A stretch of DNA of 64,000 nt from a virus (taxonomy: Duplodnaviria; Heunggongvirae; Uroviricota; Caudoviricetes), in IMG/VR virus record IMGVR_UViG_3300028888_000043, positions 169,756-233,755 of that record. The stretch is one strand, 5' to 3'. The position numbers and the translations under genes were made by a program. This document shows, piece after piece, positions 6,956 to 45,074 of this stretch (its first letter is position 1; every line of letters begins with the position of its first letter). The notes below the pieces were generated by a model. That model was not told the DNA's origin and did not search any database. It was given only the letters and a program-made list of their open reading frames with translations.

Positions 6956-7993
6956 ATGGCAGAAGTAAATTTCAATGAACTGTTCGGATCATTTTCCGCA
7001 GCAGATGCCCTTGCGGCAACCGAGACCAGTAACAATTCTGGTTATTCTGGAAGAGCAGACCTCTTCAAACCATCCATCAAGGATGAAAAGTGTACGGACC
7101 AGAACTACCGTGCCCTCATCAGATTCATTCCTTTCTTCCATGAGGGAAAGTGGCGTACCACTGTCAGTCGTTGGGAATGCTTCCTGAAGGATGTGAATGG
7201 TGAAAACGGTATCTTCGTTGTTTCACCAAAGACTGATGGAAAGAAGTGTCCTATGAGGAATCTTTCCTACAAACTCTACACAAGTGATAGTGCAATCGAT
7301 AAGGAAAACTCCAAGAAGATTAATGTCTATCAGCAGTACTATGCCCTCATTGAGGTAGTCAAGGATGTACAGCATCCTGAATATGATGGAAAGGTTTTCA
7401 TCTATCAGTTCGGTCAGAAGATCAATGATAAGATTGAGGCTGCTATGAAGAGCACCGAGTTCACCGAGGGATTTAACCCGTTTGACCTTTATGATGGTCG
7501 CCTCTTTGAAATCAACATTACAAAGGATGCAACCAAGAAGATGGACAACAGACCTGTTGCCAACTATGATGCATGCCGTTTCATCGAGAAGACTTCTCCT
7601 ATCCACTTCACTGTTGGTGAAGAGAAGATGACTCTCTCCCGTGATGACAGGGATTCCCAGAGGGCTTTCTTCGAGTGGTTGGAGAAGGGTGCTCCGAAGA
7701 TTAAGGACTACTTCTGGAAGGAGTGGGATGCAGAGACCACTGAAAAGGTCAATGCCAATCTTGCCACCTATACTTCCAGTTATGTTGCTCCCCGCACAAC
7801 TGTTGCAGCAGCAAAGGAGACTGTGAGTGCGGCAACTGCACCTGTGGCACACCAGGAAGCACCTGCATCTGTGACTCTTGATCCTGTTGAGGATATGCCT
7901 GATTTCACTGCGGCATCCCCTCAGATTCCAGAAGATGAAACTCCGGTTTCAACTGCTGATGATGACTGGATCAACAGTGTCCTGAATGGATAA
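6956..7993 (+). CDS. gp32: T4 gp32-like single-stranded DNA-binding protein
   Basis: ALIRFIP, KKCP, YYALIEVVKDVQHPEYDGKVFIYQFGQKINDKI, NPFDLYDG, NYDAC motifs; acidic C-tail DDDWINSVL. Confidence 0.88.
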   Translation: MAEVNFNELFGSFSAADALAATETSNNSGYSGRADLFKPSIKDEKCTDQNYRALIRFIPFFHEGKWRTTVSRWECFLKDVNGENGIFVVSPKTDGKKCPMRNLSYKLYTSDSAIDKENSKKINVYQQYYALIEVVKDVQHPEYDGKVFIYQFGQKINDKIEAAMKSTEFTEGFNPFDLYDGRLFEINITKDATKKMDNRPVANYDACRFIEKTSPIHFTVGEEKMTLSRDDRDSQRAFFEWLEKGAPKIKDYFWKEWDAETTEKVNANLATYTSSYVAPRTTVAAAKETVSAATAPVAHQEAPASVTLDPVEDMPDFTAASPQIPEDETPVSTADDDWINSVLNG

Positions 7994-8004
7994 TTTCTAA
8001 ATAT

Positions 8005-8034
8005 GGTGGTGGGAAAGTTCTTCCCACCACCTTT
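8005..8034 (+). terminator. intrinsic terminator
   Basis: GGTGGTGGGAA/TTCCCACCACC 11-bp stem plus TTT. Confidence 0.7.
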
Positions 8035-8049
8035 AATCAAAAAACATAT

Positions 8050-8586
8050 ATGCCTAAAATTTTTGCTATTAGTGACACTTGGATTAACCGCCTGTTAGTG
8101 GAAGATCCAAATGCAAATGTTGTAGATAATAATGACCATATCATTCAGAGTTGGAATGATGTAGTGGACAAGGATGATACAGTTTATGTCCTGGGTGGAT
8201 TTGGTATTGCAGATATGTATCATATTCTTGTAAGACTGAATGGACAGATACACTTCCTCGCCAATTATTTCAACAATGATGAATCTGAATGCATGTCAAT
8301 GTTGAAGAAGGCTGTTGAGAAGACAAGTGATGTATCATTCAAGGAAAAGATACATTTTGACAATGAGCAGATTGTTGTACTGAATGATCTTGATGCAGTC
8401 CTTTCATACTTTCCACTTCAAGATTGGCCAGGTAAAAATACAGGAACATATTGTTTTCATGGTCTGAATGATAGTATGAATCTTGAAGAACACAATATCA
8501 CCTGTCTTGGTAGTAAATGGGATTTCAGTCCTGTTGATATTGAGGATGTTCAAAAAAATATCTCCACATTCAATAGCAAACTTTAA
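8050..8586 (+). CDS. calcineurin-like metallophosphoesterase-fold protein with degenerate metal ligands
   Basis: FAISDTW, WNDVVDKDDTVYVLGG, LNGQIHFLANY, FHGL align to the phage phosphoesterase pattern SDxH...WN..V...D.VY.LGD...GNHD...HGH. Confidence 0.7.
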   Translation: MPKIFAISDTWINRLLVEDPNANVVDNNDHIIQSWNDVVDKDDTVYVLGGFGIADMYHILVRLNGQIHFLANYFNNDESECMSMLKKAVEKTSDVSFKEKIHFDNEQIVVLNDLDAVLSYFPLQDWPGKNTGTYCFHGLNDSMNLEEHNITCLGSKWDFSPVDIEDVQKNISTFNSKL

Positions 8587-8593
8587 TGATTTA

Positions 8594-8620
8594 GGCATCC
8601 TGTAAACAACAGGATGTCTT
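8594..8620 (+). terminator. probable terminator hairpin
   Basis: GGCATCCTGT/ACAGGATGTC stem. Confidence 0.5.
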
Positions 8621-8647
8621 GATCTGTTTAAAAGAATTTGTCAAAAA

Positions 8648-8679
8648 TTTGTTTTTTTGACAAAAAATCATTATACTTG
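8648..8679 (+). promoter_or_regulatory. host-type Bacteroidota promoter (TTTG-N20-TATACTTG)
   Basis: Fits the Bacteroides -33 TTTG / -7 TAnnTTTG layout with one mismatch; upstream of the sigma70-like gene. Confidence 0.55.
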
Positions 8680-8746
8680 TATTAGGTATTCATATCTGAT
8701 ACCAATATAATCACCCAAACATAAGTAAAAATAAGTTAATTTAGTA

Positions 8747-9424
8747 ATGGATAGTAAGTTGTATAATGACATTGGTAAGACTGTTGAAGCTGCCAAAAAG
8801 AACAATGGTTCTCTGACAGAACAAAATCTTCTTTATGTGGTAAAGGTTGCCACAGACATAGCTAACAAGACCGGAGCAGATTTTGATTCTCTTTTTGCAG
8901 AAGGTGTAATCGCTATGAAGAAGATGGAAGAAAAGTTTGACATAACCAAGAATGACAAGTTCACCAAGGCAGCAGCAATGGCAGTCAGGGGTTATATGTT
9001 GAACTCCATCAATCGTCAGAGTACATTGGTTCATATCCCTGCCAATCATATGAAGGGTTTCAAGAAAGGTCAGGACAGACTTGACTCTTCAAAGGTGGAG
9101 TATTGTCAGATTGATGCAACCAATTATGATACATTGGGTTATGTGGATAACTCTGCATTTGAGGTTGACCGGGAGGCCATTCTTGAAGAAGGATTGAAGA
9201 CATTGGATATCAATGGGCGTATTGCTATGGAGATGAAGTTGCATAGAGGTAAATATTCTGAACAGCTTCCCAGTGAGGGTAAGGACAAGATAGTCTGGAA
9301 ATACAAGAACTCTATGCAGGATATTGCTGATGAACTTGAAGTTCCTCTCAATACTGCAAACAAAATTTATAAGGAAGCATATAATAAGTTGAAAAAATAT
9401 TGTATGACTGCCGCAAATGAATAA
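8747..9424 (+). CDS. sigma70-family RNA polymerase sigma factor (phage)
   Basis: Region 2-like QNLLYVVKVA...DSLFAEGVIAMKKMEEKFD...KFTKAA; region 4-like HTH SMQDIADELEVPLNTANKIYKEAYNKLK. Confidence 0.85.
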   Translation: MDSKLYNDIGKTVEAAKKNNGSLTEQNLLYVVKVATDIANKTGADFDSLFAEGVIAMKKMEEKFDITKNDKFTKAAAMAVRGYMLNSINRQSTLVHIPANHMKGFKKGQDRLDSSKVEYCQIDATNYDTLGYVDNSAFEVDREAILEEGLKTLDINGRIAMEMKLHRGKYSEQLPSEGKDKIVWKYKNSMQDIADELEVPLNTANKIYKEAYNKLKKYCMTAANE

Positions 9425-9435
9425 ATGAAACTGAT

Positions 9436-10065
9436 ATGAAAAGGGTAAATCCAAATCATGATCCAAAACACAGAAGTAGAAGATGGGATTACAAGAGTAT
9501 CAAGAAACAACCCCAGAAGGACAATGATGTCAGGAAATATGACACTGAAGTAAAGTGGATGCGCAGGAATGAATCTCTTGAAGATGTCATCCGTAAGGCA
9601 ATCCGTAAGGCCAGGGATAGTTGGAGGACCCCATATTGGATTGTTGAGGCGGAGGATTATTCATATGATGTTCCTGATGACCAGAAGAAATATAAGAAGG
9701 AACACTTCACTCCTGATGACAGTCTGACCATAAGACAACTCCTTGAACAGGATGATGCCAAATTCAGAAGTACTTCTCTTGCAAAAAGGTGTAGATATGT
9801 GAGAGTTCCCTCATTGAAAAGAATAGACAGGGAATGGGTCAACTTCTACAGGACTTGGCCAGGTATTGCGGAGGATGTCGCCATTGGAGAGGAAAGGTTT
9901 GCTGACGGGGCAAAACTCAAATACATTCCGTTATTCAAGAAGATACTTGATGAAGAGTGGCCTGAAGACCTGAAGATGTGGACTGACGAGCAATATGAAG
10001 AACTGATGAGGAAAGGTGTCATAAAACCGTATGACCAAGTGATGATAAAGAATCTGATTGATTAA
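9436..10065 (+). CDS. hypothetical protein
   Basis: 209-aa ORF in operon with the sigma factor. Confidence 0.75.
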   Translation: MKRVNPNHDPKHRSRRWDYKSIKKQPQKDNDVRKYDTEVKWMRRNESLEDVIRKAIRKARDSWRTPYWIVEAEDYSYDVPDDQKKYKKEHFTPDDSLTIRQLLEQDDAKFRSTSLAKRCRYVRVPSLKRIDREWVNFYRTWPGIAEDVAIGEERFADGAKLKYIPLFKKILDEEWPEDLKMWTDEQYEELMRKGVIKPYDQVMIKNLID

Positions 10066-30027: not shown

Positions 30028-30035
30028 CATAAATA
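30028..30035 (+). promoter_or_regulatory. late promoter CATAAATA
   Basis: Upstream of the S1-like gene. Confidence 0.65.
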
Positions 30036-33262: not shown

Positions 33263-34261
33263 TTACTCTTCCTCTTCTCCACCACATTCACCATTTTCCA
33301 TCTCTGGATCATAATCCGGGTCATCCGGGTCATCACAAGACTTTTCACCAAACTTGTCATATTTGCAGGATTCCTTGATTGCGGCATAGTCCTCATAGAC
33401 AAACTCATCAAATGTCTTCACAGCATGCTCTGTGAATGATGTGATTTTGTAGATTGTAGAGTCAATAAGGGCAAAGAGTTCATCAATGGTTGAATTGATT
33501 TCACTGTGTTCACCCATTATATACTTGTTTGTTTCAATGAAGTTCTTCAAGTCAAGAAGATACTCTGATTCAGTCTTGTCATCGCCGATGATGCAGTTGA
33601 CAAATGGATCCTCAACCACACCATTGATACCCTGATACTGCTCGATGATATCATCAACAATATCAAGCGCTTTTTCATAGAACTCATTGAGTGCAACATG
33701 TACATGGTGCTTTCTTGTTTTGAGATGATATCTCCAAACAATGGATACACACTCCTGGATGGTACCGAAGAAGTTACCGATAGTCATAGCAGACTGTGTA
33801 GAACAGATGTCAGTAGGTGCTCCATCACAACATTCCGGACCTGGACAGGCATCACCAGGACAACCATCAATAGGTGTCTCATCACCCATTTCAGGAACGA
33901 CATCACTGACAACAGGTGCCGGTTCCTCTGGAAGTTCAACAGGAGTATCGCCAGGTGCAGGGATTACATCATCAGTAGGTGCAAGTGTCACATCTTCTGC
34001 TGGAGGAACAATAGGTTCAGTTACTGGTTTATCAGCATCGTGGACATCAAACACTGGTGGAACAATATCTGCCAGCGGAGCGTCAACTACTGGTTCAGCA
34101 GCAGGTTCAACTGATGGAACATCCTCTGGTTCAATTACAGTATTGTCATCTACCTGTTCCATATTTGGATTTTCATCTTCTGGATTTTCTACTACAACAT
34201 CCTTGACATCAATAGTATCATCTACTACTGGTTCAATTATTGTTTTCTCATCTTTTTCCAT
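33263..34261 (-). CDS. Pro/acidic N-terminus plus ferritin/Dps-like four-helix domain
   Basis: YHLKT..HHVHVALNEFYE....IVDDIIEQYQG; C-terminal VKTFDEFVYE. Confidence 0.6.
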   Translation of the reverse strand: MEKDEKTIIEPVVDDTIDVKDVVVENPEDENPNMEQVDDNTVIEPEDVPSVEPAAEPVVDAPLADIVPPVFDVHDADKPVTEPIVPPAEDVTLAPTDDVIPAPGDTPVELPEEPAPVVSDVVPEMGDETPIDGCPGDACPGPECCDGAPTDICSTQSAMTIGNFFGTIQECVSIVWRYHLKTRKHHVHVALNEFYEKALDIVDDIIEQYQGINGVVEDPFVNCIIGDDKTESEYLLDLKNFIETNKYIMGEHSEINSTIDELFALIDSTIYKITSFTEHAVKTFDEFVYEDYAAIKESCKYDKFGEKSCDDPDDPDYDPEMENGECGGEEEE

Positions 34262-34281: not shown

Positions 34282-34539
34282 TTATTGCTGTTCGGTGATA
34301 TGAACATTACTTTTCTTGAAGATATATTTAATAGAACCTCTGTCAACAGAATAATCATTACTAATTGTAATCTTTGATGCATCAACATCAGTCCAACCGG
34401 TCAATTCATAATCTGTGAGAGTACTGGTTAAACCTGTAATAGTAATATCTGCATTACTTGATGATGAATCATTATAATGTAAAGTAACATCAAATGTTTC
34501 ACCAGGAACATCATGCTTAAGATTAATTATGTAAGCCAT
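34282..34539 (-). CDS. 85-aa stand-alone copy of the MxYxIxIKH N-terminal domain (start revised from 34584)
   Basis: MAYIINLKHDVPG...ELTGW aligns with N-termini of the 37852 and 39041 ORFs; late promoter lies inside the longer ORF call. Confidence 0.7.
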   Translation of the reverse strand: MAYIINLKHDVPGETFDVTLHYNDSSSSNADITITGLTSTLTDYELTGWTDVDASKITISNDYSVDRGSIKYIFKKSNVHITEQQ

Positions 34540-34565
34540 ATTTATAATAATTTGTTTATGTATAT

Positions 34566-34573
34566 TATTTATG
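34566..34573 (-). promoter_or_regulatory. late promoter CATAAATA
   Basis: 26 nt before ATG 34539. Confidence 0.65.
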
Positions 34574-34580
34574 AAAATTT

Positions 34581-35468
34581 TCAATAGACAATGTTCACAT
34601 CATTCAGTCCGAGCGCTTTCAGAAGCATAAATCCCATATAACAATTAGAATGAGGGATATATGAACCATCGACAGAATTTTCACCATAGAACATATATAT
34701 TTCCATTTCATCAGTGTCTATACCGACAGGAAATCCAGCTACCCTGCTGATTGTTGAACAATATTCCGGATGATTCACTCTGTCAAATCCTGCATCACAT
34801 GGATCATCGCCATGGAATAAAAACTGTTGTCCATAAGAACTACTTAATCCAAAATAATGTCTGTATTCATGTATGAGTGCTGGAATTTGTGAATTGCTGG
34901 CATTATATAGAACTATTTTACCTTTATATCCCTCACAATATCCTCCTGAACCAAAAGTTGCACTATCTGGATCAATGTAAAACTTTGCTGAAAAATATGT
35001 TCCATCATTATATGGATGTGGTGTCCTTGCTTCTGTTACCTTATAGTCATAACCAACTGCAATCATCCTGGCCTTAAATTCATTCACAAGTTCATCCATC
35101 GCTTCTTGTGTGGTAGAACCTGATAACACACCATAGTCTTTGAATTCAAAATCTCCAAGAGATACAGTTGTAAATTCCTTTTGACTTGTTTCAGAAGGAA
35201 TACTACTATCTCCTTTTTCTGTGACTACAAGTTTTATCTGATATGTGGTGTTCGGTTCCAATCCATCCAAATCATAAAGTAATGTTTTTGCCCGGAATAA
35301 AGGGAACTCATTTGTCTGGAATGAACTCATCGGACCTTCTTCTGTATAAGTACTAACACCTTTTTTCCGATACAAGATTTTCCATTTTGTTTGTATATTA
35401 TTTACTCTTGCAACTATTTTAATTCTTATCACAGCACAAGTTGCACCTGGAATAATTGAAATGTCCAT
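34581..35468 (-). CDS. fibronectin type III domain plus HExxH zinc-metallopeptidase-like domain
   Basis: LDGLEPNTTYQIKL (FN3) and LIHEYRHYFGL (zincin motif). Confidence 0.7.
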   Translation of the reverse strand: MDISIIPGATCAVIRIKIVARVNNIQTKWKILYRKKGVSTYTEEGPMSSFQTNEFPLFRAKTLLYDLDGLEPNTTYQIKLVVTEKGDSSIPSETSQKEFTTVSLGDFEFKDYGVLSGSTTQEAMDELVNEFKARMIAVGYDYKVTEARTPHPYNDGTYFSAKFYIDPDSATFGSGGYCEGYKGKIVLYNASNSQIPALIHEYRHYFGLSSSYGQQFLFHGDDPCDAGFDRVNHPEYCSTISRVAGFPVGIDTDEMEIYMFYGENSVDGSYIPHSNCYMGFMLLKALGLNDVNIVY

Positions 35469-35476
35469 AATTGATA

Positions 35477-37852
35477 TTAATTTATTGTTATAATAAATCC
35501 ATCATGGCGGTTACCGTCAGATTCATATTTTTGTGTGGATTTGAAGGTATATGTGAGTCTTGTATTGATTGAAAAATGATTTGACTCTGTAAGAGTAACC
35601 TCATCACCATAAAGACTTGTTACAGTAATTTTATCCTTAATGTCTTGACCCAATAAACATATCTTAAAGTTATCAGATCTTTGTGAAAGGTTTATATTGT
35701 ATGAATGGCCATGATCGGATAAGTCAATTTCTGAAATGACATATGCACAATTGTTGTATTGATAAGCGATATTGGAATAAACACATCTTATATTCTGTGA
35801 TTCTTGAATTACAAAATATCTACAGTTTGTTGGATATAAACTGATGACACCAAATTTTAATCTATCCAAATTATTTGGAAGTATTGAAAATCTCAAATGT
35901 GAATATTTCCTTGCAAGTTCATATGTTATATTTTGAAACATTGATACACTATCAAATGCTATGGTTTTTTGTGTGGAGTATATTCCAGAACCATTATAAT
36001 ATCTGTAATAATTTAAGCATTCAAAGGTGACTTCATTGGATGGATAATCCTTTCCTTCATTATAGTCTCCAGTGTAAAATTTTATTGTATTTCCATCTAT
36101 TACAGCAGCACCATCATCAGCACCAATAAATTCAAGGTCTATATTTGTATTATTGGTACTATATGGAATTATATCAACATTACAGAATATTCCAGAATAA
36201 CTTCTGAATCTTATATTACTATAATGTTCAGAATTACCTGATGCATCAACTTTAATTTCTATATCTTCTGATTTTTCAGAATGTATGGTAAATGTACCAG
36301 TAGTATCAACCATCTCATGAGATGTCATACCATATGCGCCTCGTGTTGCTATGAATATTGAATATTCATTACCGATGTTAATTTGAGAACTACATAAACT
36401 GAAATCTCTCTTTTTTCCTGTATAACCTCCTCTATGCTCACTGGTTACAGATACTGTATAATCAAGTAATTGGTGTTTATCATTTGATATTATTATTGGG
36501 AAATAACCTCTCTCTTGATACAAATGTGTTTGTGTACCATCAGTTTCATTATATGATGAAGGCAATGCCATAGCACTGAGGACAACAGTATCATTCAATA
36601 CAACTGTTATGTTCTCATTTACAGTTCCATCTATTGCAACAATCTGGTCAGTATAGTTTTCAGCAGATACCTTTATCCATAATTTTGATAATGGAGTATA
36701 GAACTTATTGTTTCCTGTGAATGTACCATCTTCTGATGTAACTGGTGTCTCACAAGTTTCATCCTTGTACCACTCTATGGTTGCATTTTCATCTGCTGGA
36801 TCAATGGTTATCTCATAAGAGAAATATTCCTTTTCCAGAATTACATCTTTTGTTGATTCATTTTGTGTGAGATGAACTTTGGTAGGTTTGTAAAAACCAT
36901 CAACATGATATGTTACAACTGCCCATACTTCATTTTTAGATGAGTATAGGGTACCAGCTGGGTCATCCTGTGACAAGAACTTATTATTTTCTGTACAGTC
37001 TTCATTAGTATACCAATCTACTGAATAATTATATATATCCATTGGATCTGTTTCATCTGGTTTATATACATTCAAAGTATATTTGTTTGCACCTGATATG
37101 TAAACTTCTGCCCAAGGTAAATCCTTTGTTATTTTTCCAGATGAAGGGGTTACTGTGAAATTATCTATTGGTTCTAACTTGAACCACACTTCTTCATATA
37201 ATGTTTGGTCTAATGAATTTGACCAGATATGTCCATCTACTCCATCTATAATTCTATGTGATTCATCCAAATCGGAATTACTATACCAGGTCAATTCCAT
37301 TGATTTCATAAGTATTAAATCAATGTCTTCTGGGAAGATGGCATAAGAATATTCTTCTACTTCATGGACAGTACCATTAATATTTACTTCAACCTCTTCA
37401 ATTTCAATGGTACCATCAATATGGACTTCAACTTCTTCCTTCTTTACTGTACCTTCAATGTTTACCTCAACATCTTCTTTCTTGACAGTACCCTCAATGT
37501 TTACTTCAATTTCTTCCTTTCTGATACTACCATTGATATTGACTTCAATCTCCTCTTTCTTGACAGTACCCGTGATTTCAACATTCTGTTCTATTGTTTC
37601 TACTACACTTGCAATGTTGAGATTACCTACAATATATACTTTATTACCTTCATTGATTGAACCTTCAATCTTTACTTTATTGGGATCAATGAATCCACGT
37701 ATGGCGTCCCATCCAGTCAGTTCAACTACCTGGAAAGTATCAGACATATTAACCCCAATAACAGGGAGGTTTAATGAAGGGTCATCATACCTCAAAGTCA
37801 AAGGGAATACCTTGTTTGGAACTTTATGTCTGATTCTTATTTTGTAAGTCAT
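35477..37852 (-). CDS. modular putative tail fibre/adhesin: shared N-terminal domain, 6 VxIxG(T/S) repeats, three WY-containing beta modules
   Basis: MTYKIRIRHKVP...ELTGW; EVNIEGTVKKE repeats; LTWYSNSD, VDWYTNEDCT, IEWYKDETCE modules. Confidence 0.65.
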   Translation of the reverse strand: MTYKIRIRHKVPNKVFPLTLRYDDPSLNLPVIGVNMSDTFQVVELTGWDAIRGFIDPNKVKIEGSINEGNKVYIVGNLNIASVVETIEQNVEITGTVKKEEIEVNINGSIRKEEIEVNIEGTVKKEDVEVNIEGTVKKEEVEVHIDGTIEIEEVEVNINGTVHEVEEYSYAIFPEDIDLILMKSMELTWYSNSDLDESHRIIDGVDGHIWSNSLDQTLYEEVWFKLEPIDNFTVTPSSGKITKDLPWAEVYISGANKYTLNVYKPDETDPMDIYNYSVDWYTNEDCTENNKFLSQDDPAGTLYSSKNEVWAVVTYHVDGFYKPTKVHLTQNESTKDVILEKEYFSYEITIDPADENATIEWYKDETCETPVTSEDGTFTGNNKFYTPLSKLWIKVSAENYTDQIVAIDGTVNENITVVLNDTVVLSAMALPSSYNETDGTQTHLYQERGYFPIIISNDKHQLLDYTVSVTSEHRGGYTGKKRDFSLCSSQINIGNEYSIFIATRGAYGMTSHEMVDTTGTFTIHSEKSEDIEIKVDASGNSEHYSNIRFRSYSGIFCNVDIIPYSTNNTNIDLEFIGADDGAAVIDGNTIKFYTGDYNEGKDYPSNEVTFECLNYYRYYNGSGIYSTQKTIAFDSVSMFQNITYELARKYSHLRFSILPNNLDRLKFGVISLYPTNCRYFVIQESQNIRCVYSNIAYQYNNCAYVISEIDLSDHGHSYNINLSQRSDNFKICLLGQDIKDKITVTSLYGDEVTLTESNHFSINTRLTYTFKSTQKYESDGNRHDGFIITIN
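37361..37585 (-). repeat. six ~13-aa (39-nt) coding tandem repeats EV(N/H)I(E/N/D)G(T/S)(V/I)
   Basis: Visible in the translation and in the DNA. Confidence 0.85.
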
Positions 37853-37868
37853 ATATCAATGATTTATT

Positions 37869-39041
37869 TTAGTTGCTTGTGAACAATGAATCTGGAAGTC
37901 CCCATTTGTTCTGCTTTGCCTGATTGTATACATCTGAATAAATACCATGATTATGATTATCATTGAAGACAACAATCTTCAGGATATTATCAGAATAAAG
38001 AGGCATTGTTACATAGTGGTTACCAAGAGTTTGCCAGTCTGTCATACTCATAAATGAGATACCATCAGCAGTGATAACATATTGTCTTCCCTTTTCAAGT
38101 CTTACTCTTACAAATGTATCATTGCTCAAAATCTTTACACCATCAACATAGATGTTACCTTTACATGGTCTGAAAGATGTACTTGATTCAGTATAATCTG
38201 GTGCAAAAGTGATTGATAACACATCTGCATTTTCATCAGGACCATCATAAACATTTACTATTGTATCAGTCTTGTCAGGTATTCTGATGTCAATAGTACA
38301 CAATCTATATTCACGTCTTAATAATCCATAAGAAGCAGAACCATTCTTTCTTCCTTCTTCATTGATAGATTGGGATCCAACAATTGCTTTTTCCCAAGTC
38401 TGAAATCTTGCATACTGTGAGTTTGCTTCAAGAAGAATACTATTAAAATAAATAGAACCATAAGTTATTCTTCCCTTATATCCAGAAGGTGTTCTTTGAC
38501 CAAGAAATGCACCCTTCATAATTGTACCATATTCTGCTGCAAAATCATCATCATTTGGGTAATGAGTTGAATTATAAGTAGTGTTTCTAATAGAATATGT
38601 TATATCATAAAGATGTTTTGATTCATCTTCACAAATCAATTGTCCAATTGCTGTATTGTAATTTCCAGTTGAATAACTTGAATTAAATTCAGCAATAATA
38701 GCTTCTTGATTACTTTGTACAGATGTATCAATAGATACTTCTTCATTCATTGCCTCATCAATAACTTCTTGGTCAGAAGTATATGCGCCTTTACCAATAT
38801 TGATACCTACAGATTCAATAACATAAATTTTGTCATTGATTTCATACTGTGGTTCTCTAATCTTTATTTTTTCAATATCAAGACCTTCATCACCAGGTTC
38901 CCAACCAACTAATTGAATAGTTTGTGGTTGGTCAGTCAATGTGATAGGGATTTCAGGGAAATTATCATTTGATTCATATTTCAAATGTAAATCCATACTT
39001 ACACCTTCAATGTTGTGTTTAATGTTTATTCTGTAAGCCAT
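37869..39041 (-). CDS. putative tail-associated protein with shared MxYxIxIKH N-terminal domain
   Basis: MAYRINIKHNIEG...QLVGW...DIEKIKI; downstream of baseplate wedge genes. Confidence 0.65.
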   Translation of the reverse strand: MAYRINIKHNIEGVSMDLHLKYESNDNFPEIPITLTDQPQTIQLVGWEPGDEGLDIEKIKIREPQYEINDKIYVIESVGINIGKGAYTSDQEVIDEAMNEEVSIDTSVQSNQEAIIAEFNSSYSTGNYNTAIGQLICEDESKHLYDITYSIRNTTYNSTHYPNDDDFAAEYGTIMKGAFLGQRTPSGYKGRITYGSIYFNSILLEANSQYARFQTWEKAIVGSQSINEEGRKNGSASYGLLRREYRLCTIDIRIPDKTDTIVNVYDGPDENADVLSITFAPDYTESSTSFRPCKGNIYVDGVKILSNDTFVRVRLEKGRQYVITADGISFMSMTDWQTLGNHYVTMPLYSDNILKIVVFNDNHNHGIYSDVYNQAKQNKWGLPDSLFTSN

Positions 39042-39064
39042 ATTATTAAATTATTTTATTGCAT

Positions 39065-42000
39065 TTAATTATTTTCTTCAAGTGTTCCGTCAACATCAAC
39101 TGGGATTGTTTCAGTACCGGAGTCTATTGTACCGTCAACATCAACTGGAATTACTTCAGTACCAGAATCTATTGTGCCATCAACTGTGACAGGTATTGTT
39201 TCAGTACTGGAGTCTATTGTACCATTAACATCAACCGGGATTGTTTCAGTACCAGAATCTATTGTTCCATCAACATCAACAGGGATTACTTCTGAACCAG
39301 ATTCCAAAGTACCATCAACATCAACTGGGATTATAGTATAGTTAATTTTAACAGTACCATCAATATTGACATCTACCTCTTCTTTTATAGTACCATCAAT
39401 ATTGACATCTACATCAAGAGTATCTGTATTGAATATAGTACCCTCAACATCAATGTTTACAGTTTCTTCTCCTGGTTCTGGCTCATATCTCACTGAACCG
39501 GTGATAGTAACATCATGTTCTGTTGGTGGTGTAGTAATATCTCTTACAGTACCTTCAATACCAACTTCAATTTCTTCTCTTAATGTACCTTCAATACCAA
39601 CTTCAACCTCATCAAGTTTACGTCTTACACGTCCATGGAGAGATACTTGTCTTTGTCTCTGTTCAAATCTGACTTTACCGGTAATGGTTACATCATGTTG
39701 TTTAGGATGCTCCCTGACTGAACCATAAATAGAGACCACAGTGATTGGTGTCAAATTCTCTTCATCAGCTGGAACAATATAATCCGGGTCATCATTATAG
39801 AATGAATTGAATTCATTGAGTTCTTTGAGAAGATTCTGTTCAAGAAGATAGTCATAATCCTTCTTGAATGTCTGGTATAACTTATAGTTTGCAGCCTTGT
39901 CAACTACAATTATGTTTCTTGACAATGTGTACTTGTTTCCAAGTTTATCCTCAAGGTCAAGAGTAACAGTGTAGTTTCCTTCTTTCTTTAACAACAGTGT
40001 AAGGTATCTACCACCTTTATTGTTTTGGTCTTTTGGCCATCTTTTTTCAATACCTGTTGTATTGTTTTTTATTCTCCATTGTGGATTGACCTTACCTGCA
40101 ATCTTACTGTATTCATATCCGAGAATGAACCAGGTGTATGGTTTCACATCAACACCATTCCTGATGTATCTGGTGTATTTTGTGAGAGGTACCAGTTTTG
40201 ACATTTCCCAGGTGATGTTGTCTGCCATATACCATTCATCGTCCACATTCTCATTGTAATATGGACCAGTGTTGGTCATATGACCTTCTGCATCATATAA
40301 AGGAACAGACATATCATCAGGATATGTAAAATCAGTTCTTTCAGATACTGCCCAACCATACATCTTCTCAATATTCTTCTGGATGAAACTGTACATCTGA
40401 CTGTCTGCATCAAGAGGATATTTGATGTTCTTTGGAAGTTCACGGATGTCATAGTAGAATCCAAGCATTTCAATGTTATATGGTTCTACCTTGATACACT
40501 TTTTCTTTGTTCTCTTCTGTCCATGTACCTCCATTGTGACATCATAGTAACCAATATAAGGAAGTTCAAGGAAGAATTGACCTGTCCTGTCAGTGTCAGT
40601 CCAAACCTTTTCAAAATCTTTGTGTTCATACTGTAAGGTAATTCCGGCAACTTTTAGGTCATCATCATATTGATTGTCAGGTTCTGACATCTTCACAGTC
40701 CATTTGATTAAATTGAGGTCATATACATATTCAATGTTATCAAATGTGTAATGTTGTATATTGTTATAATTTGTAGTACCCTCATCATAATATGTTTGTA
40801 ACCCACCAGGAGTCTGTTCCATTGGGGTTTCAAAGTCCATAGCATGACCATCAGATGTTGATGTCGGATAGTTTGGCTGACCATTACTGTCAGTGTCTGT
40901 ATAATTATAAGTTGTACAATCAAATTTCAGGTCACTGTTGTCAAATGTAATCGTAGAATAATCATTACATCTCAAAACCACCTTGGCAGAGAATCTTTCT
41001 GCATCAGAATAATAAGCATATTCTTCATTATCAAGGTTTTTATAATCATATGTGTAATCATCATTGTCCTCTATTTCCTTGAACATTGTATGATTCTCAC
41101 AGGTGTCTTCATAGAATTTGAGATAATAATCACACAACTGTGTATTTGACAATGATGCCATAGCATAGGTATGATTATTCAAATACACATTATTAGTATT
41201 CAAATAATCATTGACAGAATCATTCAACAGGTCAGAAAGCATCTGATTCTGTAAAGGAACATTGTCTTGACCTTCATTTTTCTTGATACTGATGTATCTG
41301 TTGAAATACTCATTATCAGTGATATGCGCATATTTTTTAGGATAGACATTGAAGTCAATATCCCAATCACTCACTGTTGTGTCAATGTCAGAAAATTCAC
41401 CTACCTTATAGATGGACTGGATACCGAAATAGTTACCCTCACCTATGATGTCAATAATCCTGCTGGATCCAGGCATAAACTCCTTGTTGAGTTTTTTCCT
41501 GAGGGCAAACAACTTGATGAGAGCTTCCTCTATGGTGTAGGTAAATTGTTCCTTCACCTTTGGAAGTTCCCATTCATCAATCTCTCCTGTTGGCTTGTTG
41601 ATGTCATAGACAAGGGCAAGGGCATTGACTTTCCTGTAATCCTTGTTTGGAAGTACGATTCGTCTCGCACCGATGGTTAATGCCTCTTTCTTTTTGAGAC
41701 TGTATCTTGAACTGTGATATATCTTACCGAAATTCTCATCATTCCTGTTGATGTTCCTCCAGTACTCAATGATGTTCAGGTTGTCATAACCGAAGAACTT
41801 GATGGCATTGATGATAGCCTTGTATGAACCTATATATGGATAGATGTTACTACCTTCCAGCATCAACTCCTTTCTCTTCTCATTGAGAAGGATATAGTCA
41901 GGCATATATTCCTTGATGTCACTCTTGTAGAACATTATAGTGTCTTCCGGAGTGATGTTGTAACCAAGGTTGGCATTCCATATCTTCAACCTTTCATCTT

Positions 42001-42535
42001 CCTCCACAGTCTCTGCATAGAACTTTATCCTGGCGATTGTCTTGTTGTTGTAAGACATAACCAGAGTCCTTGTGTAAGTGGTGGCATCATGCTTTTCATT
42101 TGCCCTGAATGCTATATGAACAGGAAGTGCCTTTGGAGTAAGATTGTTATCAAGATATACATCATATGTATCAAACCTGTTGATAATAAGTGTATTACAG
42201 TCCGGACCATCATTAGGTGTATAGATAAGTGCAGATGTTTCTTTGATGGTATAAGTCTCATCAAAGTTGAACATAAAGAACTCATCAACAAAGGTATTCT
42301 GTGTATCCCAACTGAATGTTATCTTACCAGGACCGGAAGGAAAACTGAACTCATTGGAGAATGTATCATCATTATTGGGTGTCTCTTCAAGAATATAGAT
42401 GGTTGTATTGGCATATAGACCTACACTGACCTTGGGAAGATAAATCATACCTTCCCAGTATCCCTGTCTACTATTCCAATCAAAGTTAAGATTGTAACCG
42501 TTATAGTTGAAAAATTGTAACTTCCTTACATCCAT
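39065..42535 (-). CDS. large baseplate wedge protein (gp7-like) with C-terminal VxVxGT repeat array
   Basis: Follows gp6; YIGSYKAIINAIKFFGY...EYW wedge-like motif; about 15 strand repeats at the C-terminus. Confidence 0.6.
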   Translation of the reverse strand: MDVRKLQFFNYNGYNLNFDWNSRQGYWEGMIYLPKVSVGLYANTTIYILEETPNNDDTFSNEFSFPSGPGKITFSWDTQNTFVDEFFMFNFDETYTIKETSALIYTPNDGPDCNTLIINRFDTYDVYLDNNLTPKALPVHIAFRANEKHDATTYTRTLVMSYNNKTIARIKFYAETVEEDERLKIWNANLGYNITPEDTIMFYKSDIKEYMPDYILLNEKRKELMLEGSNIYPYIGSYKAIINAIKFFGYDNLNIIEYWRNINRNDENFGKIYHSSRYSLKKKEALTIGARRIVLPNKDYRKVNALALVYDINKPTGEIDEWELPKVKEQFTYTIEEALIKLFALRKKLNKEFMPGSSRIIDIIGEGNYFGIQSIYKVGEFSDIDTTVSDWDIDFNVYPKKYAHITDNEYFNRYISIKKNEGQDNVPLQNQMLSDLLNDSVNDYLNTNNVYLNNHTYAMASLSNTQLCDYYLKFYEDTCENHTMFKEIEDNDDYTYDYKNLDNEEYAYYSDAERFSAKVVLRCNDYSTITFDNSDLKFDCTTYNYTDTDSNGQPNYPTSTSDGHAMDFETPMEQTPGGLQTYYDEGTTNYNNIQHYTFDNIEYVYDLNLIKWTVKMSEPDNQYDDDLKVAGITLQYEHKDFEKVWTDTDRTGQFFLELPYIGYYDVTMEVHGQKRTKKKCIKVEPYNIEMLGFYYDIRELPKNIKYPLDADSQMYSFIQKNIEKMYGWAVSERTDFTYPDDMSVPLYDAEGHMTNTGPYYNENVDDEWYMADNITWEMSKLVPLTKYTRYIRNGVDVKPYTWFILGYEYSKIAGKVNPQWRIKNNTTGIEKRWPKDQNNKGGRYLTLLLKKEGNYTVTLDLEDKLGNKYTLSRNIIVVDKAANYKLYQTFKKDYDYLLEQNLLKELNEFNSFYNDDPDYIVPADEENLTPITVVSIYGSVREHPKQHDVTITGKVRFEQRQRQVSLHGRVRRKLDEVEVGIEGTLREEIEVGIEGTVRDITTPPTEHDVTITGSVRYEPEPGEETVNIDVEGTIFNTDTLDVDVNIDGTIKEEVDVNIDGTVKINYTIIPVDVDGTLESGSEVIPVDVDGTIDSGTETIPVDVNGTIDSSTETIPVTVDGTIDSGTEVIPVDVDGTIDSGTETIPVDVDGTLEENN
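39068..39743 (-). repeat. about 15 coding repeats, consensus V-x-(I/V)-x-G-(T/S); the last six are 15-aa IPVDVDGTIDSGTET units (45 nt)
   Basis: Visible in the translation and in the DNA. Confidence 0.85.
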
Positions 42536-42819
42536 TAGTCAATGCGTTTGTAATCTTTTCTGACAGCATAGTTATTGAAGTTCCTCAAATACTTTACACT
42601 GTTGATGAGATGGGACATTATCCTGTTGAGATAAGGAAAGAACTGTCTCATCATAGGGTTCTTTTGGAGATACCTACTGGTGTTGTCTTCCATCAGTGTG
42701 TTCTCATATTTGTAACCCTCATTCTTTGTTTCCCATCTACTCTCATTTATCTTGTCATAGATGGAGTTGAAACCTTTGTACTTAATGATGTTCAAATCAG
42801 TATTCTTTGAAGTATCCAT
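42535..42819 (-). CDS. small baseplate-region protein
   Basis: 94 aa, coupled between gp6 and the gp7-like gene. Confidence 0.7.
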   Translation of the reverse strand: MDTSKNTDLNIIKYKGFNSIYDKINESRWETKNEGYKYENTLMEDNTSRYLQKNPMMRQFFPYLNRIMSHLINSVKYLRNFNNYAVRKDYKRID

Positions 42820-42822
42820 CTA

Positions 42823-44598
42823 TTAGTAGTTGTTTTTTAATAATGTATTGAGTTTTCTCTGCATAGCAAGATTATAAGCAGAACTATCTACCTTGTCAAT
42901 GAAGAAGATGTTGAGAGGTCCGAGCTTTCCTTCTTCTGGAGTCTCTGTGTAGTAGTTTCCATCCCTGTCTTTCCATCCACCCTTTGGGATGAAGATTTCA
43001 TATTCATTGACTTTGAGATTACCGAAATTGTCAAATCCAATCCTTGGGTCTTCATCATAACCCACATAGACCTTCTGTCTCTTCTCTATGTATTCAAGAC
43101 CATCCCAGGTCATCTCATTCTCATAATAGTAACCATTGACGATTGCCCTTTCATTCTCTTCATTGACAAAGAATACATCACATGTATCTACACCGTCAAT
43201 ACCCTCCACAAGGGAGATGATGTCAGAGAGAGGAACAATGTCATTCCTGTTGATGTTGAGGAAATACTGACCGAGACGCTTCCTGATACTTGCCCTGATA
43301 CTTGTCCTGTCAATGTCCTCGAAGTAGCGGATAATGATGTTGATGACAAACCTCTTCACAGTGGGGTCGACAATCTGGACTTCAGCATTGACAAGCATCC
43401 TTCCTGAATCATCCAATGCACTGATGATGGAATTCTTCTCATATTCACTCAAAGTGAACTCATTTGCCGGAAGTTCAAAGTAGTCTTGATTACTGGAAAG
43501 TTTCTTCTTCATATTAGGGATGATTTTCAGATAGACTACATTGTCATCATAGATGTCCGCATCATCCTTTGTGTTATAAGCATATATGAAGGAATACTGG
43601 TTATACTTTGAGAGATAACTGACATAGTTTTCAGGTGTTGCAAGTACAAATGACTTACTGGCCTTCGGAGCAATCATCTTTGTGAATTCAGGATCCTCAA
43701 AGTCACTACCCAACATAGGTGGTGCTACTGTCTCCACTATAAGTACATCATTGAGATTCACTTCATTACCATATTCATCAACACCAGTATCATCAAAGAG
43801 ATAGGTGAGATGAGATGTGTTTGCATTACCTTCTGAACCGGTTGTCCTGATGTATGTCACTTCTATCAATGAACCTGCTGGCGGAATCTTTCCGAATTCA
43901 CCATTTCCAAAGAAAATTGAGAGACCAACATTGACTGATGACTTGGCAATGAAGCATTCCGAACTCTCACTGATGTCATCATCGGCAGGCATATCATAAA
44001 GACTGTTAACTCTTTTCCATACTTTTCCATTGACAGAGACAGCCACATTGTCATTGTCAGTCATATTCTTGATAATGGGATTGAAGGACTGGAGTGGTGT
44101 TCCATCTGATGTGAAGGTCTGCGTTTCAGGAATTCCCTGAATAAAATTCACATTGGTAAACGTTGTATCTGCAACATTGAGTCTAATATAATCAGAAGGA
44201 AGGTTCAAGAAGTAAGTACATCCTGTTTCTGCAATTGTGAACTTTGTGAAATTATTGATAGTAACAAAGTTACCTTCAATCAAATCTGATGAAGTGTTAA
44301 GTTTCAATGCCATCATACCATAGGCACTTCCACCCCTGTAAGCATCATGTCCTGTCATCTGGGCCAGACCATAGATTGTCTCTATATTCTGGGCAGTCTT
44401 GATATTAAGTTCTTCTGCTGTATGAGCAATATATGTGAATATGAGTTCAGCCATATTTGATACAACAATAAGTAGTTGTCCAAATGGAGAAGCAGATGTA
44501 AATACATGTGCTGCTTGATTATATTTGTTATGTAGGAACACAACTGCTTGTTCCATCAAATCACTGGCTTTGAGCCTTGTTCTGGATAAAAATCCCAT
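42823..44598 (-). CDS. gp6: baseplate wedge protein gp6-like
   Basis: ELNIKTAQ..ETIYGLAQMTG, QGI...QTFTSDG, IFFGNGEFGKIP..GSLIEVTY.RT.G..GN, LATPENY. Confidence 0.85.
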   Translation of the reverse strand: MGFLSRTRLKASDLMEQAVVFLHNKYNQAAHVFTSASPFGQLLIVVSNMAELIFTYIAHTAEELNIKTAQNIETIYGLAQMTGHDAYRGGSAYGMMALKLNTSSDLIEGNFVTINNFTKFTIAETGCTYFLNLPSDYIRLNVADTTFTNVNFIQGIPETQTFTSDGTPLQSFNPIIKNMTDNDNVAVSVNGKVWKRVNSLYDMPADDDISESSECFIAKSSVNVGLSIFFGNGEFGKIPPAGSLIEVTYIRTTGSEGNANTSHLTYLFDDTGVDEYGNEVNLNDVLIVETVAPPMLGSDFEDPEFTKMIAPKASKSFVLATPENYVSYLSKYNQYSFIYAYNTKDDADIYDDNVVYLKIIPNMKKKLSSNQDYFELPANEFTLSEYEKNSIISALDDSGRMLVNAEVQIVDPTVKRFVINIIIRYFEDIDRTSIRASIRKRLGQYFLNINRNDIVPLSDIISLVEGIDGVDTCDVFFVNEENERAIVNGYYYENEMTWDGLEYIEKRQKVYVGYDEDPRIGFDNFGNLKVNEYEIFIPKGGWKDRDGNYYTETPEEGKLGPLNIFFIDKVDSSAYNLAMQRKLNTLLKNNY

Positions 44599-44714: not shown

Positions 44715-45074
44715 CTATACCAAGTATGATGCAACCTTTTTGTTGTTTATCACCAAATCGACGATCATTGCCACATTCAGTTTCCATCTGACAAACTGCA
44801 CATCAACATCAACACTGTATGAACCGTCAAGATAGATGAAACTCCTAATCTGATTCATAATGATGTTCTTTATCATACTTTCATTGTATGTTGTGTCAAA
44901 CAGATACCTTCCAAGACCACATCCAAATTCAGGCATGCACAGAACATCACCTTTATTGGTGAACAGAATCATATCAACCTGCTGTATGATTTCATCCAGT
45001 TCACCGGTGATTTCAAGTACATTGTCCTTATATCTTGGTTCCTCTTCAGGAATGGCATAGATGTCTTTTAACAT
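44715..45074 (-). CDS. gp25: baseplate wedge protein gp25-like
   Basis: IIQQVDMILFTNKGDVL.MPEFGCGL..YLF motif. Confidence 0.88.
   Translation of the reverse strand: MLKDIYAIPEEEPRYKDNVLEITGELDEIIQQVDMILFTNKGDVLCMPEFGCGLGRYLFDTTYNESMIKNIIMNQIRSFIYLDGSYSVDVDVQFVRWKLNVAMIVDLVINNKKVASYLV

Follow-up and report, generated by a model that had tools for sequence, protein, structure and literature searches.

Little is known about the way in which huge phages mount many different host-recognition modules on a single baseplate, and the majority of their tail genes lack annotation. The question is raised by a stretch of 64,000 nucleotides of DNA (hereafter the window), which covers positions 169756-233755 of a 411,604-bp IMG/VR phage record with a CheckV completeness of 94%. 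The source is an uncultured jumbo myophage. Its minus-strand late operon holds, together with the baseplate wedge genes, a gene for a large protein that ends in an array of short strand repeats (the carrier), and three genes whose products begin with the same domain of about 85 amino acids (aa), which we call the anchor domain. The distribution of these two elements over several phage lineages supports a functional coupling of domain and strand repeat within a system of modular attachment. Judged from sequence, they appear to be two previously undescribed families in a known kind of system, the modular attachment of receptor-binding proteins (RBPs).

The strand array and the shared N-terminal domain

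The carrier (39065..42535, minus strand; 1156 aa) is a large baseplate protein in the position of gp7, in which a core is followed by the terminal strand array. Its sole PHROG match is phrog_28177 (E 1.7e-22), which is annotated as 'unknown function', and a protein atlas places it in 'Tail protein' clusters at 0.79-0.86, a lead only. The N-terminal third resembles hypothetical proteins of Flavobacterium, Chryseobacterium, Tenacibaculum and Prevotella (Lak) jumbo phages and of several uncultured huge phages. The original prediction had called this protein a 'gp7-like' wedge protein. The gene order agreed with it, as a gp25-like gene, a 591-aa phrog_219 wedge subunit, a 94-aa gene and the 1156-aa protein follow one another, identically in relatives, but no match to T4 gp7 or to wedge families was found in Pfam, NCBIfam or PDB sequences. 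The name is thus positional, inferred from gene order only.

The array occupies carrier residues 925-1156 (39068..39763, minus strand) as 15 copies of VxIxG(T/S)(V/I/L). Thirteen of them, at residues 934-1152, follow the strict motif [VIL]x[VIL]xG[TS][VIL], and two relaxed copies (VTITGKV and VSLHGRV) bring the count to the approximately 15 terminal V-x-(I/V)-x-G-(T/S)-(V/I/L) repeats that had been predicted. The strands are spaced 12-19 aa apart, the final six copies exactly 15 aa, and the linkers between them vary from 5 to 12 aa. The motif gave 21 matches in the repeat-bearing frame of this region, against 0-4 in each of the five remaining frames, counted over all 64 kb of the window. A consensus of 70 repeat units has V at position 0, I at +2, G at +4 and V at +6. 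Written as E-(I/V)-x-V-x-I-x-G-T-V, it describes a short amphipathic strand separated from the next by variable polar linkers, and its alternating hydrophobic residues with a small residue are as expected of a donor strand. In two relatives (L013 and L014), A, S, V or N frequently stands in place of the glycine, which reduces the conserved core of the motif to I/V-P-V-x-I/V-x-x-x-I/V. The acidic VDVDGTIDSGTE units could be read as calcium-binding and EF-hand-like, but this was rejected as a general explanation, because the basic and neutral repeat classes are without Asp ligands.

Three genes downstream of the carrier, all on the minus strand, encode the anchor domain. P0002 (37869-39041; 390 aa) carries it at residues 1-85 (38787..39041), followed by a C-terminal module of about 300 aa without repeats (37869..38786), which has orthologues of 42-64% identity in L010, L013 and L014. 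P0003 (35477-37852; 791 aa) has the domain at residues 1-85 (37598..37852), six strand repeats of its own at 13 aa (residues 91-168, 37349..37582; the six motif copies span residues 91-162), and a distal module (residues 169-791, 35477..37348). P0005 is the domain alone, 85 aa from the ATG at 34539 (34282..34539), and its orthologues of 83-92 aa stand at the same position in L007, L010-L014 and L017. A late-promoter-like CATAAATA motif (34566..34573, minus strand) lies 26 nt upstream of this ATG. The three N-termini are 31-38% identical, with pairwise BLASTP E values of 1e-11, 2e-12 and 3e-09. These are the only three copies in the 411,604-bp genome. The prediction of an N-terminal domain common to three genes, of one gene (start 37852) joining it to six repeats, and of a gene at 34539 with the domain alone behind its own promoter was thus borne out, the last as to a promoter-like motif.

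An exhaustive profile search for the domain in 1.84 billion representative proteins returned 34 matches at E<=0.001. In all 27 non-repetitive matches with E better than 1e-5 the domain stands at residues 1-84, apart from a weak internal second stretch in P0003 itself. The family proteins are 71 to 1544 aa long and their C-terminal parts are unrelated; exchangeable C-terminal parts behind a constant N-terminal domain are what is looked for in an RBP anchor. Six members are free forms of 83-87 aa. In the 13 loci examined, the anchor-domain genes adjoin baseplate or tail structural genes. Three long repetitive proteins (P0024, P0025 and P0036) matched piecewise through Ig-like or junk repeats and were excluded from the family. 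Two short members are chimeric: in P0011 (95 aa) the anchor domain is followed by the terminal 10 residues of a P0004-type protein, and in P0023 (71 aa) the first ~54 domain residues are followed by the C-terminal end of a 680-aa relative, P0015. Both are likely deletion variants, and such forms point to frequent rearrangement in the cassette.

The AlphaFold2 (AF2) model of the domain, built from a 25-sequence alignment, has an eight-strand all-beta fold with a mean predicted local distance difference test score (pLDDT) of 77.7, falling to 55-66 in the final 20 residues; a model of the lone domain does not decide whether the fold is complete. Neither Foldseek against the PDB nor a BFVD search gave anything with E<1, and the best VIA-align wide score was Z 4.5, which is at noise level, with baseplate entries at only Z 3.5-3.8, not meaningful. 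In the ESM Atlas, TM scores of 0.52-0.57 were obtained to assorted carbohydrate-binding-module- or immunoglobulin-like sandwiches. The modelled fold is that of a generic beta-sandwich to which no family can be assigned. The domain has no relative in Pfam, PHROGs or NCBIfam; a PDB sequence search with its profile gave nothing meaningful, and IMG/VR pattern scans with the domain alignments gave nothing. A repeat-like strand inside the domain itself (VKIEGSI, residue 60 of P0003) was also considered and rejected: a position-specific scoring matrix of the 70 units gave a mean of -8.0 against -9.5 for shuffles, with the 95th percentile of the null at -0.6.

Neither the strand array nor the anchor domain had a match in Pfam, PHROGs, PDB sequences or 50,697 GenBank phage records. 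The tblastn searches of GenBank phages, with the array alone and with domain plus repeats, found nothing, and in a word-based search with the array, the orthologue P0039 and a truncated form of it, P0040, were the only matches. No array-like sequence turned up outside the lineages described here in the word-based and tblastn searches.

Coupling of strand and domain across lineages

In three carrier families the protein ends in the strand motif, and anchor-domain genes follow immediately downstream. The family in the gp7 position has 13-18 strands. The carriers of L019 and L020 (1258-1325 aa) end in four to seven Y-D-x-D-F-x-G-S-L units, and those of L015 and L016 (675 and 978 aa) in two and one units, respectively. 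The three carrier cores show no mutual homology by BLASTP or by profile-profile comparison (probability 0.1% per pair). The only feature common to the three families is the strand, and the anchor domain was inferred from this to be its partner. Moreover, the strand occurs singly, has variable linkers and is conserved over lineages whose domains are less than 35% identical, which suggests a short linear motif that needs a partner. The two elements also meet in single proteins, since complete open reading frames (ORFs) encode the domain, a linker and strands alone, with one strand in P0026, two in a 122-aa protein of L020 and four in P0027. Conversely, five phages with homologues of the carrier core (LR756500.1, MA9V-1, MaF61, pT24 and LR756502.1) have no domain match at E<=0.01 and no repeat array, in a search that recovered all three domain copies of the window's genome. 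In L016, the 978-aa carrier (7049-9985) has a core that matches phrog_31887 (unknown function), and its one strand unit is followed by an acidic low-complexity tail of about 55 aa, rich in Gly, Ser, Glu, Pro and Asp.

Of the mechanisms that could account for these distributions, we tentatively hold beta-strand addition, with the strands as binding sites of the anchor domains, to be the most likely, and give it a little less than an even chance. The system would attach distal baseplate modules, likely receptor-binding or enzymatic, and would consist of two parts. The first would be the all-beta N-terminal anchor of ~85 aa, which heads unrelated C-terminal modules and is also made as a free protein. 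The second would be the strand array, which ends a large baseplate protein encoded upstream or directly follows an anchor domain. In the window, where the array has a bare end, its 15 strands would bring in P0002, P0003 and numerous copies of P0005, which is promoted separately; more docking sites would be provided by the six strands of P0003. The array would form a stalk, and in some relatives it has the distal module attached covalently. Unequal recombination within the repeats would alter the number of strands and switch modules between the covalent and docked forms.

A stronger form of the same idea is a scaffoldin-like viral assembly. Each donor strand would receive one beta-sandwich domain, adaptors made of a domain and n strands would extend or branch the array, and excess free domain would fill the remaining strands to give a beaded stalk. 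We consider this form rather unlikely. The original prediction had proposed a modular docking array in which a strand would complete the fold of the shared domain. The coupling of domain and strand speaks for the modular part of it, through the three carriers, the proteins with a domain and 1-4 strands, and the five phages without both; but the repeats proved to serve also as a covalent stalk and recombination joint, as described below. It had further been proposed that the number of repeats should follow the number of domain copies. A loose rise, at best weakly positive, was seen, but not proportional scaling, with 1-18 strands and 1-3 domain genes.

The repeats might instead form an oligomeric beta-fibre, in which three chains, either identical or of different kinds (for example, carrier and P0003-type), intertwine as a triple beta-helix or beta-spiral shaft. 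A repeat of strand, glycine and variable loop with a period of 12-17 aa does resemble the shaft repeats of adenovirus-type and T4-type fibres, and repeats lie between an anchor and a distal module, where a shaft is expected. On the other hand, gp7 is present in one copy per wedge in T4-type baseplates, and the protein that bears the array takes up the gp7 wedge position, an identity taken from gene order only. Since single strands end some carriers, the spacing is variable (12-19 aa) and the array is fused to this wedge-position protein, a homotrimeric fibre in particular becomes less likely. A shaft would also leave the repeat-less domain proteins P0002 and P0005 unexplained, and the array had no meaningful match in PDB sequences. 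Altogether, a fibre of intertwined chains seems improbable.

It may also be asked whether the repeats have any specific function. In their DNA, both arrays are tandem duplications of recent origin (Tandem Repeats Finder: period 45 x 5.6 copies in the carrier, period 39 x 4.9 copies in P0003), as would be expected if they were low-complexity tandem sequence and the shared N-terminus had simply been left over when genes were duplicated. However, the strand sequence is conserved over lineages with domains only 28-35% identical and on non-homologous carriers, the first five carrier strands keep their positions among relatives with carrier cores ~58% identical, and the free-domain ORF is kept at 83-92 aa in eight loci. 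With this degree of retention, we regard a functionless repeat as most improbable.

Covalent stalks, bare arrays and the free domain in relatives

The carrier orthologue in L011, P0039 (1557 aa), has a core 89% identical to that of the carrier and the same array, which continues into a C-terminal module. This fused module is 34% identical to the C-terminus of P0003 (residues 451-791; E 2e-51), and the same architecture of core, repeats and module was found in L012, L007 (1707 aa) and L017. One distal module thus occurs both fused to a carrier and on a separate anchor-domain protein. The window carrier and P0039 diverge within the repeats, and the P0039 repeats just before the module resemble the 13-aa repeats of P0003. 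The array is therefore a joint at which a core with repeats and a domain with repeats and module recombined. Because the repeats lie covalently between the wedge core and the distal module in close relatives, they serve as a stalk as well as a recombination joint. The P0003 distal module seems to open with two or three weakly similar units of ~85 aa with W-Y-x-D/N-E-x-C (self-comparison E 0.002), and its C-terminal ~340 aa are the portion common to the carrier-fused modules of relatives.

Carriers with bare arrays were found in the window (15 strands), L013 (~15) and L014 (~18), and in each the next gene is of the P0002 type, with the domain and a module of ~300 aa. A P0002-type gene is absent from the four loci with fused carriers (L007, L011, L012 and L017). 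It is present in L010, where the carrier lies off the contig.

Several points weigh against docking on the strands. The main one is L006, where a carrier homologous to those of L019 and L020 has no terminal strands and is followed by a gene for the domain with four strands. If the domain bound strands only, this arrangement would be without a visible root on the virion, and it would fit a domain that docks on the carrier core, with the strands serving otherwise; the contig is just 1.75 kb long, and further strand-bearing proteins are possible. Second, the strands of L015 and L016 are a weak signal, as random sequence contains the motif about once in 10,000 residues and their pairwise E is 0.24. 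Third, the carrier profiles are shallow (2-8 sequences), and very remote homology between the cores could escape them. Fourth, the repeat counts from metagenome contigs are uncertain. Runs of N interrupt the strand arrays of two metagenome assemblies (L011, 7031-9112; L017, 4816-4915), and short-read repeat counts, possibly that of the window too, may therefore be collapsed. Fifth, the six syntenic relatives are non-independent samples. Sixth, no physical or predicted contact between domain and strand was obtained; a co-fold of the free domain (25-row alignment) with carrier residues 1040-1156, run without controls, scored 0.14 and 0.18 against a mark of 0.32 and counts neither way. Finally, the relatives with fused modules clearly use the repeats as a covalent linker, for which no docking is needed.

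The last of these points is the starting point for an account in which the repeats are a stalk only. They would form a self-sufficient spacer, such as a beta-meander or solenoid-like rod, and a recombination joint, while the anchor docks elsewhere on the baseplate and both travel in one mobile fibre cassette. The fusions of core, repeats and module in the four loci and of domain, repeats and module in P0003 agree with this, and in L006 the domain would stand in for a covalent repeat linkage to the repeat-less carrier. The copy number shifts by recent tandem duplication, as for a spacer of variable length. However, many arrays end bare, without a distal part (the window, L013, L014, P0027, P0026 and the 122-aa protein of L020), one or two terminal strands are too few for a rod, and the spacing is irregular inside a single array. 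One homologous domain would have to find a separate docking surface on each of the three carriers, which have no detectable homology. The AF2 monomer model of the array, built from 5 sequences, also lacks a confident fold (pLDDT 30.8) and is unusable as a structure; this is weak evidence. We therefore consider a pure spacer unlikely, though a serious competitor of docking on the strands.

The free domain of the relatives bears on the docking model in another way. In every syntenic relative (L007, L010-L014 and L017/L018) a free domain of 83-92 aa lies between a P0004-like gene and a DUF5856 gene, and in L017 no other domain copy lies within about 10 kb on either side. Its frame is kept in eight loci, with a ratio of nonsynonymous to synonymous substitution rates (dN/dS) of 0.18-0.83, many pairs being saturated. 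It is fast-evolving, at 31-43% identity compared with 52-59% for the carrier core and 72-91% for neighbouring genes. The stand-alone copy had been predicted to cap empty sites. Because it is the most conserved member, universally retained in the syntenic relatives, and has its own promoter-like motif, it is better read as a core component or putative stoichiometric structural partner than as merely a cap for spare sites.

Neighbouring genes and comparison with known systems

The remaining genes of the operon provide the context, again on the minus strand. The gp25-like baseplate wedge gene (44715..45074; 119 aa) matches Pfam GPW_gp25 at E 1.8e-4, under the curated cut-off. The gp6/J-like wedge subunit (42823..44598; 591 aa) matches phrog_219, 'baseplate wedge subunit', at E 4.7e-32. 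Between this subunit and the carrier lies the conserved 94-aa gene (42535..42819), which is 88-100% identical in the syntenic relatives and had no family match in Pfam or PHROGs. The CATAAATA motif occurs in 17 copies in the window versus 4.0 expected, and the sites stand mostly just upstream of gene starts, such as 34566-34573 (-) before P0005, 44626-44633 (-) before the 591-aa wedge subunit gene, and 30028-30035 (+). This placement fits a late-promoter element of the phage.

P0004 (34581..35468; 295 aa), which lies between P0003 and P0005, has no anchor domain. Its N-terminus is fn3-like (Pfam fn3 E 0.004, under the cut-off), and it carries a HEYRH motif (HExxH, metallopeptidase-like) that is invariant in 7 family members. 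A P0004 paralogue comes after the module-bearing genes in L007, L011, L012 and L017, and paralogues are also found in L010. This placement can be likened to that of fibre-specific assembly or tip proteins. In L017, a P0004-type N-terminus is fused to a distal module (770 aa), which suggests that it may be a second type of anchor. The DUF5856 protein (33263-34261; E 1e-11) is always encoded next after the free domain in relatives, and its N-terminal part is variable (48-69% identity).

For huge phages, the two recognisable elements would mark an attachment interface in at least three uncultured jumbo-phage lineages. If docking takes place on the strand, the interface would be unusually simple and countable, with one short peptide per site, so that fibre stoichiometry could be predicted from sequence, and the small peptide-domain pair might be used for protein engineering. 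If the scaffoldin-like form were true, host-range modules could be added, removed or multiplied by changes of strand number through unequal recombination. Even if the strand is not the docking site, domain and repeat are practical annotation markers for receptor-binding genes in metagenomic phages.

Branched multi-RBP phages, such as CBA120 with TSP1-4 and G7C with gp63.1/gp66, have conserved N-terminal attachment domains. The Klebsiella jumbo phage phiKp24 is reported to have 'hyperbranched tail fibers' (PMC9700779). Like these phages, the window appears to encode several RBPs with different distal modules and a shared N-terminal attachment part, their genes lie together beside the baseplate genes, and some of the proteins would be adaptors that carry sites for others. 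Unlike them, the candidate docking element is a strand of 7-10 residues in tandem array, not a folded gp10-like domain, and a free copy of the anchor domain is kept as a conserved gene. No sequence or fold relationship to these systems was found by Pfam, PHROGs, Foldseek PDB, VIA-align, PDB profile or BFVD searches.

In the TssG-TssK pair of the type VI secretion system and in siphophage Dit-RBP assemblies, short extended loops or arms of a wedge or hub protein bind N-terminal beta-sandwich 'shoulder' domains of receptor-binding-type proteins. The likeness would lie in a short element that enters a shoulder domain. In these assemblies a carrier has one or two loops and every loop binds a trimer, whereas the present system has up to 18 tandem strands.

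Contractile sheaths show beta-sheet augmentation, the sheath handshake (PMC10811340). As in this handshake and in the donor-strand complementation of chaperone-usher pili, a short strand with alternating hydrophobic residues is proposed here to join the beta-sheet of another subunit, and P0026, with a domain and one strand, has the parts for head-to-tail chaining. In contrast to these systems, no chaperone or usher is present, and fold and PDB searches gave no homology to pilins or sheath handshake domains; the domain model had no pilin-like match above noise with Foldseek PDB or VIA-align.

In the scaffoldin of the cellulosome, cohesin repeats bind dockerin modules. None of the five proteins had a Pfam match to cohesin or dockerin at E<=0.1, and the repeated element would be a strand, not a domain of 150 aa. 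The resemblance is an analogy only, and consists of a docking element repeated along a scaffold, a small module common to diverse catalytic or binding subunits, and adaptors that carry both.

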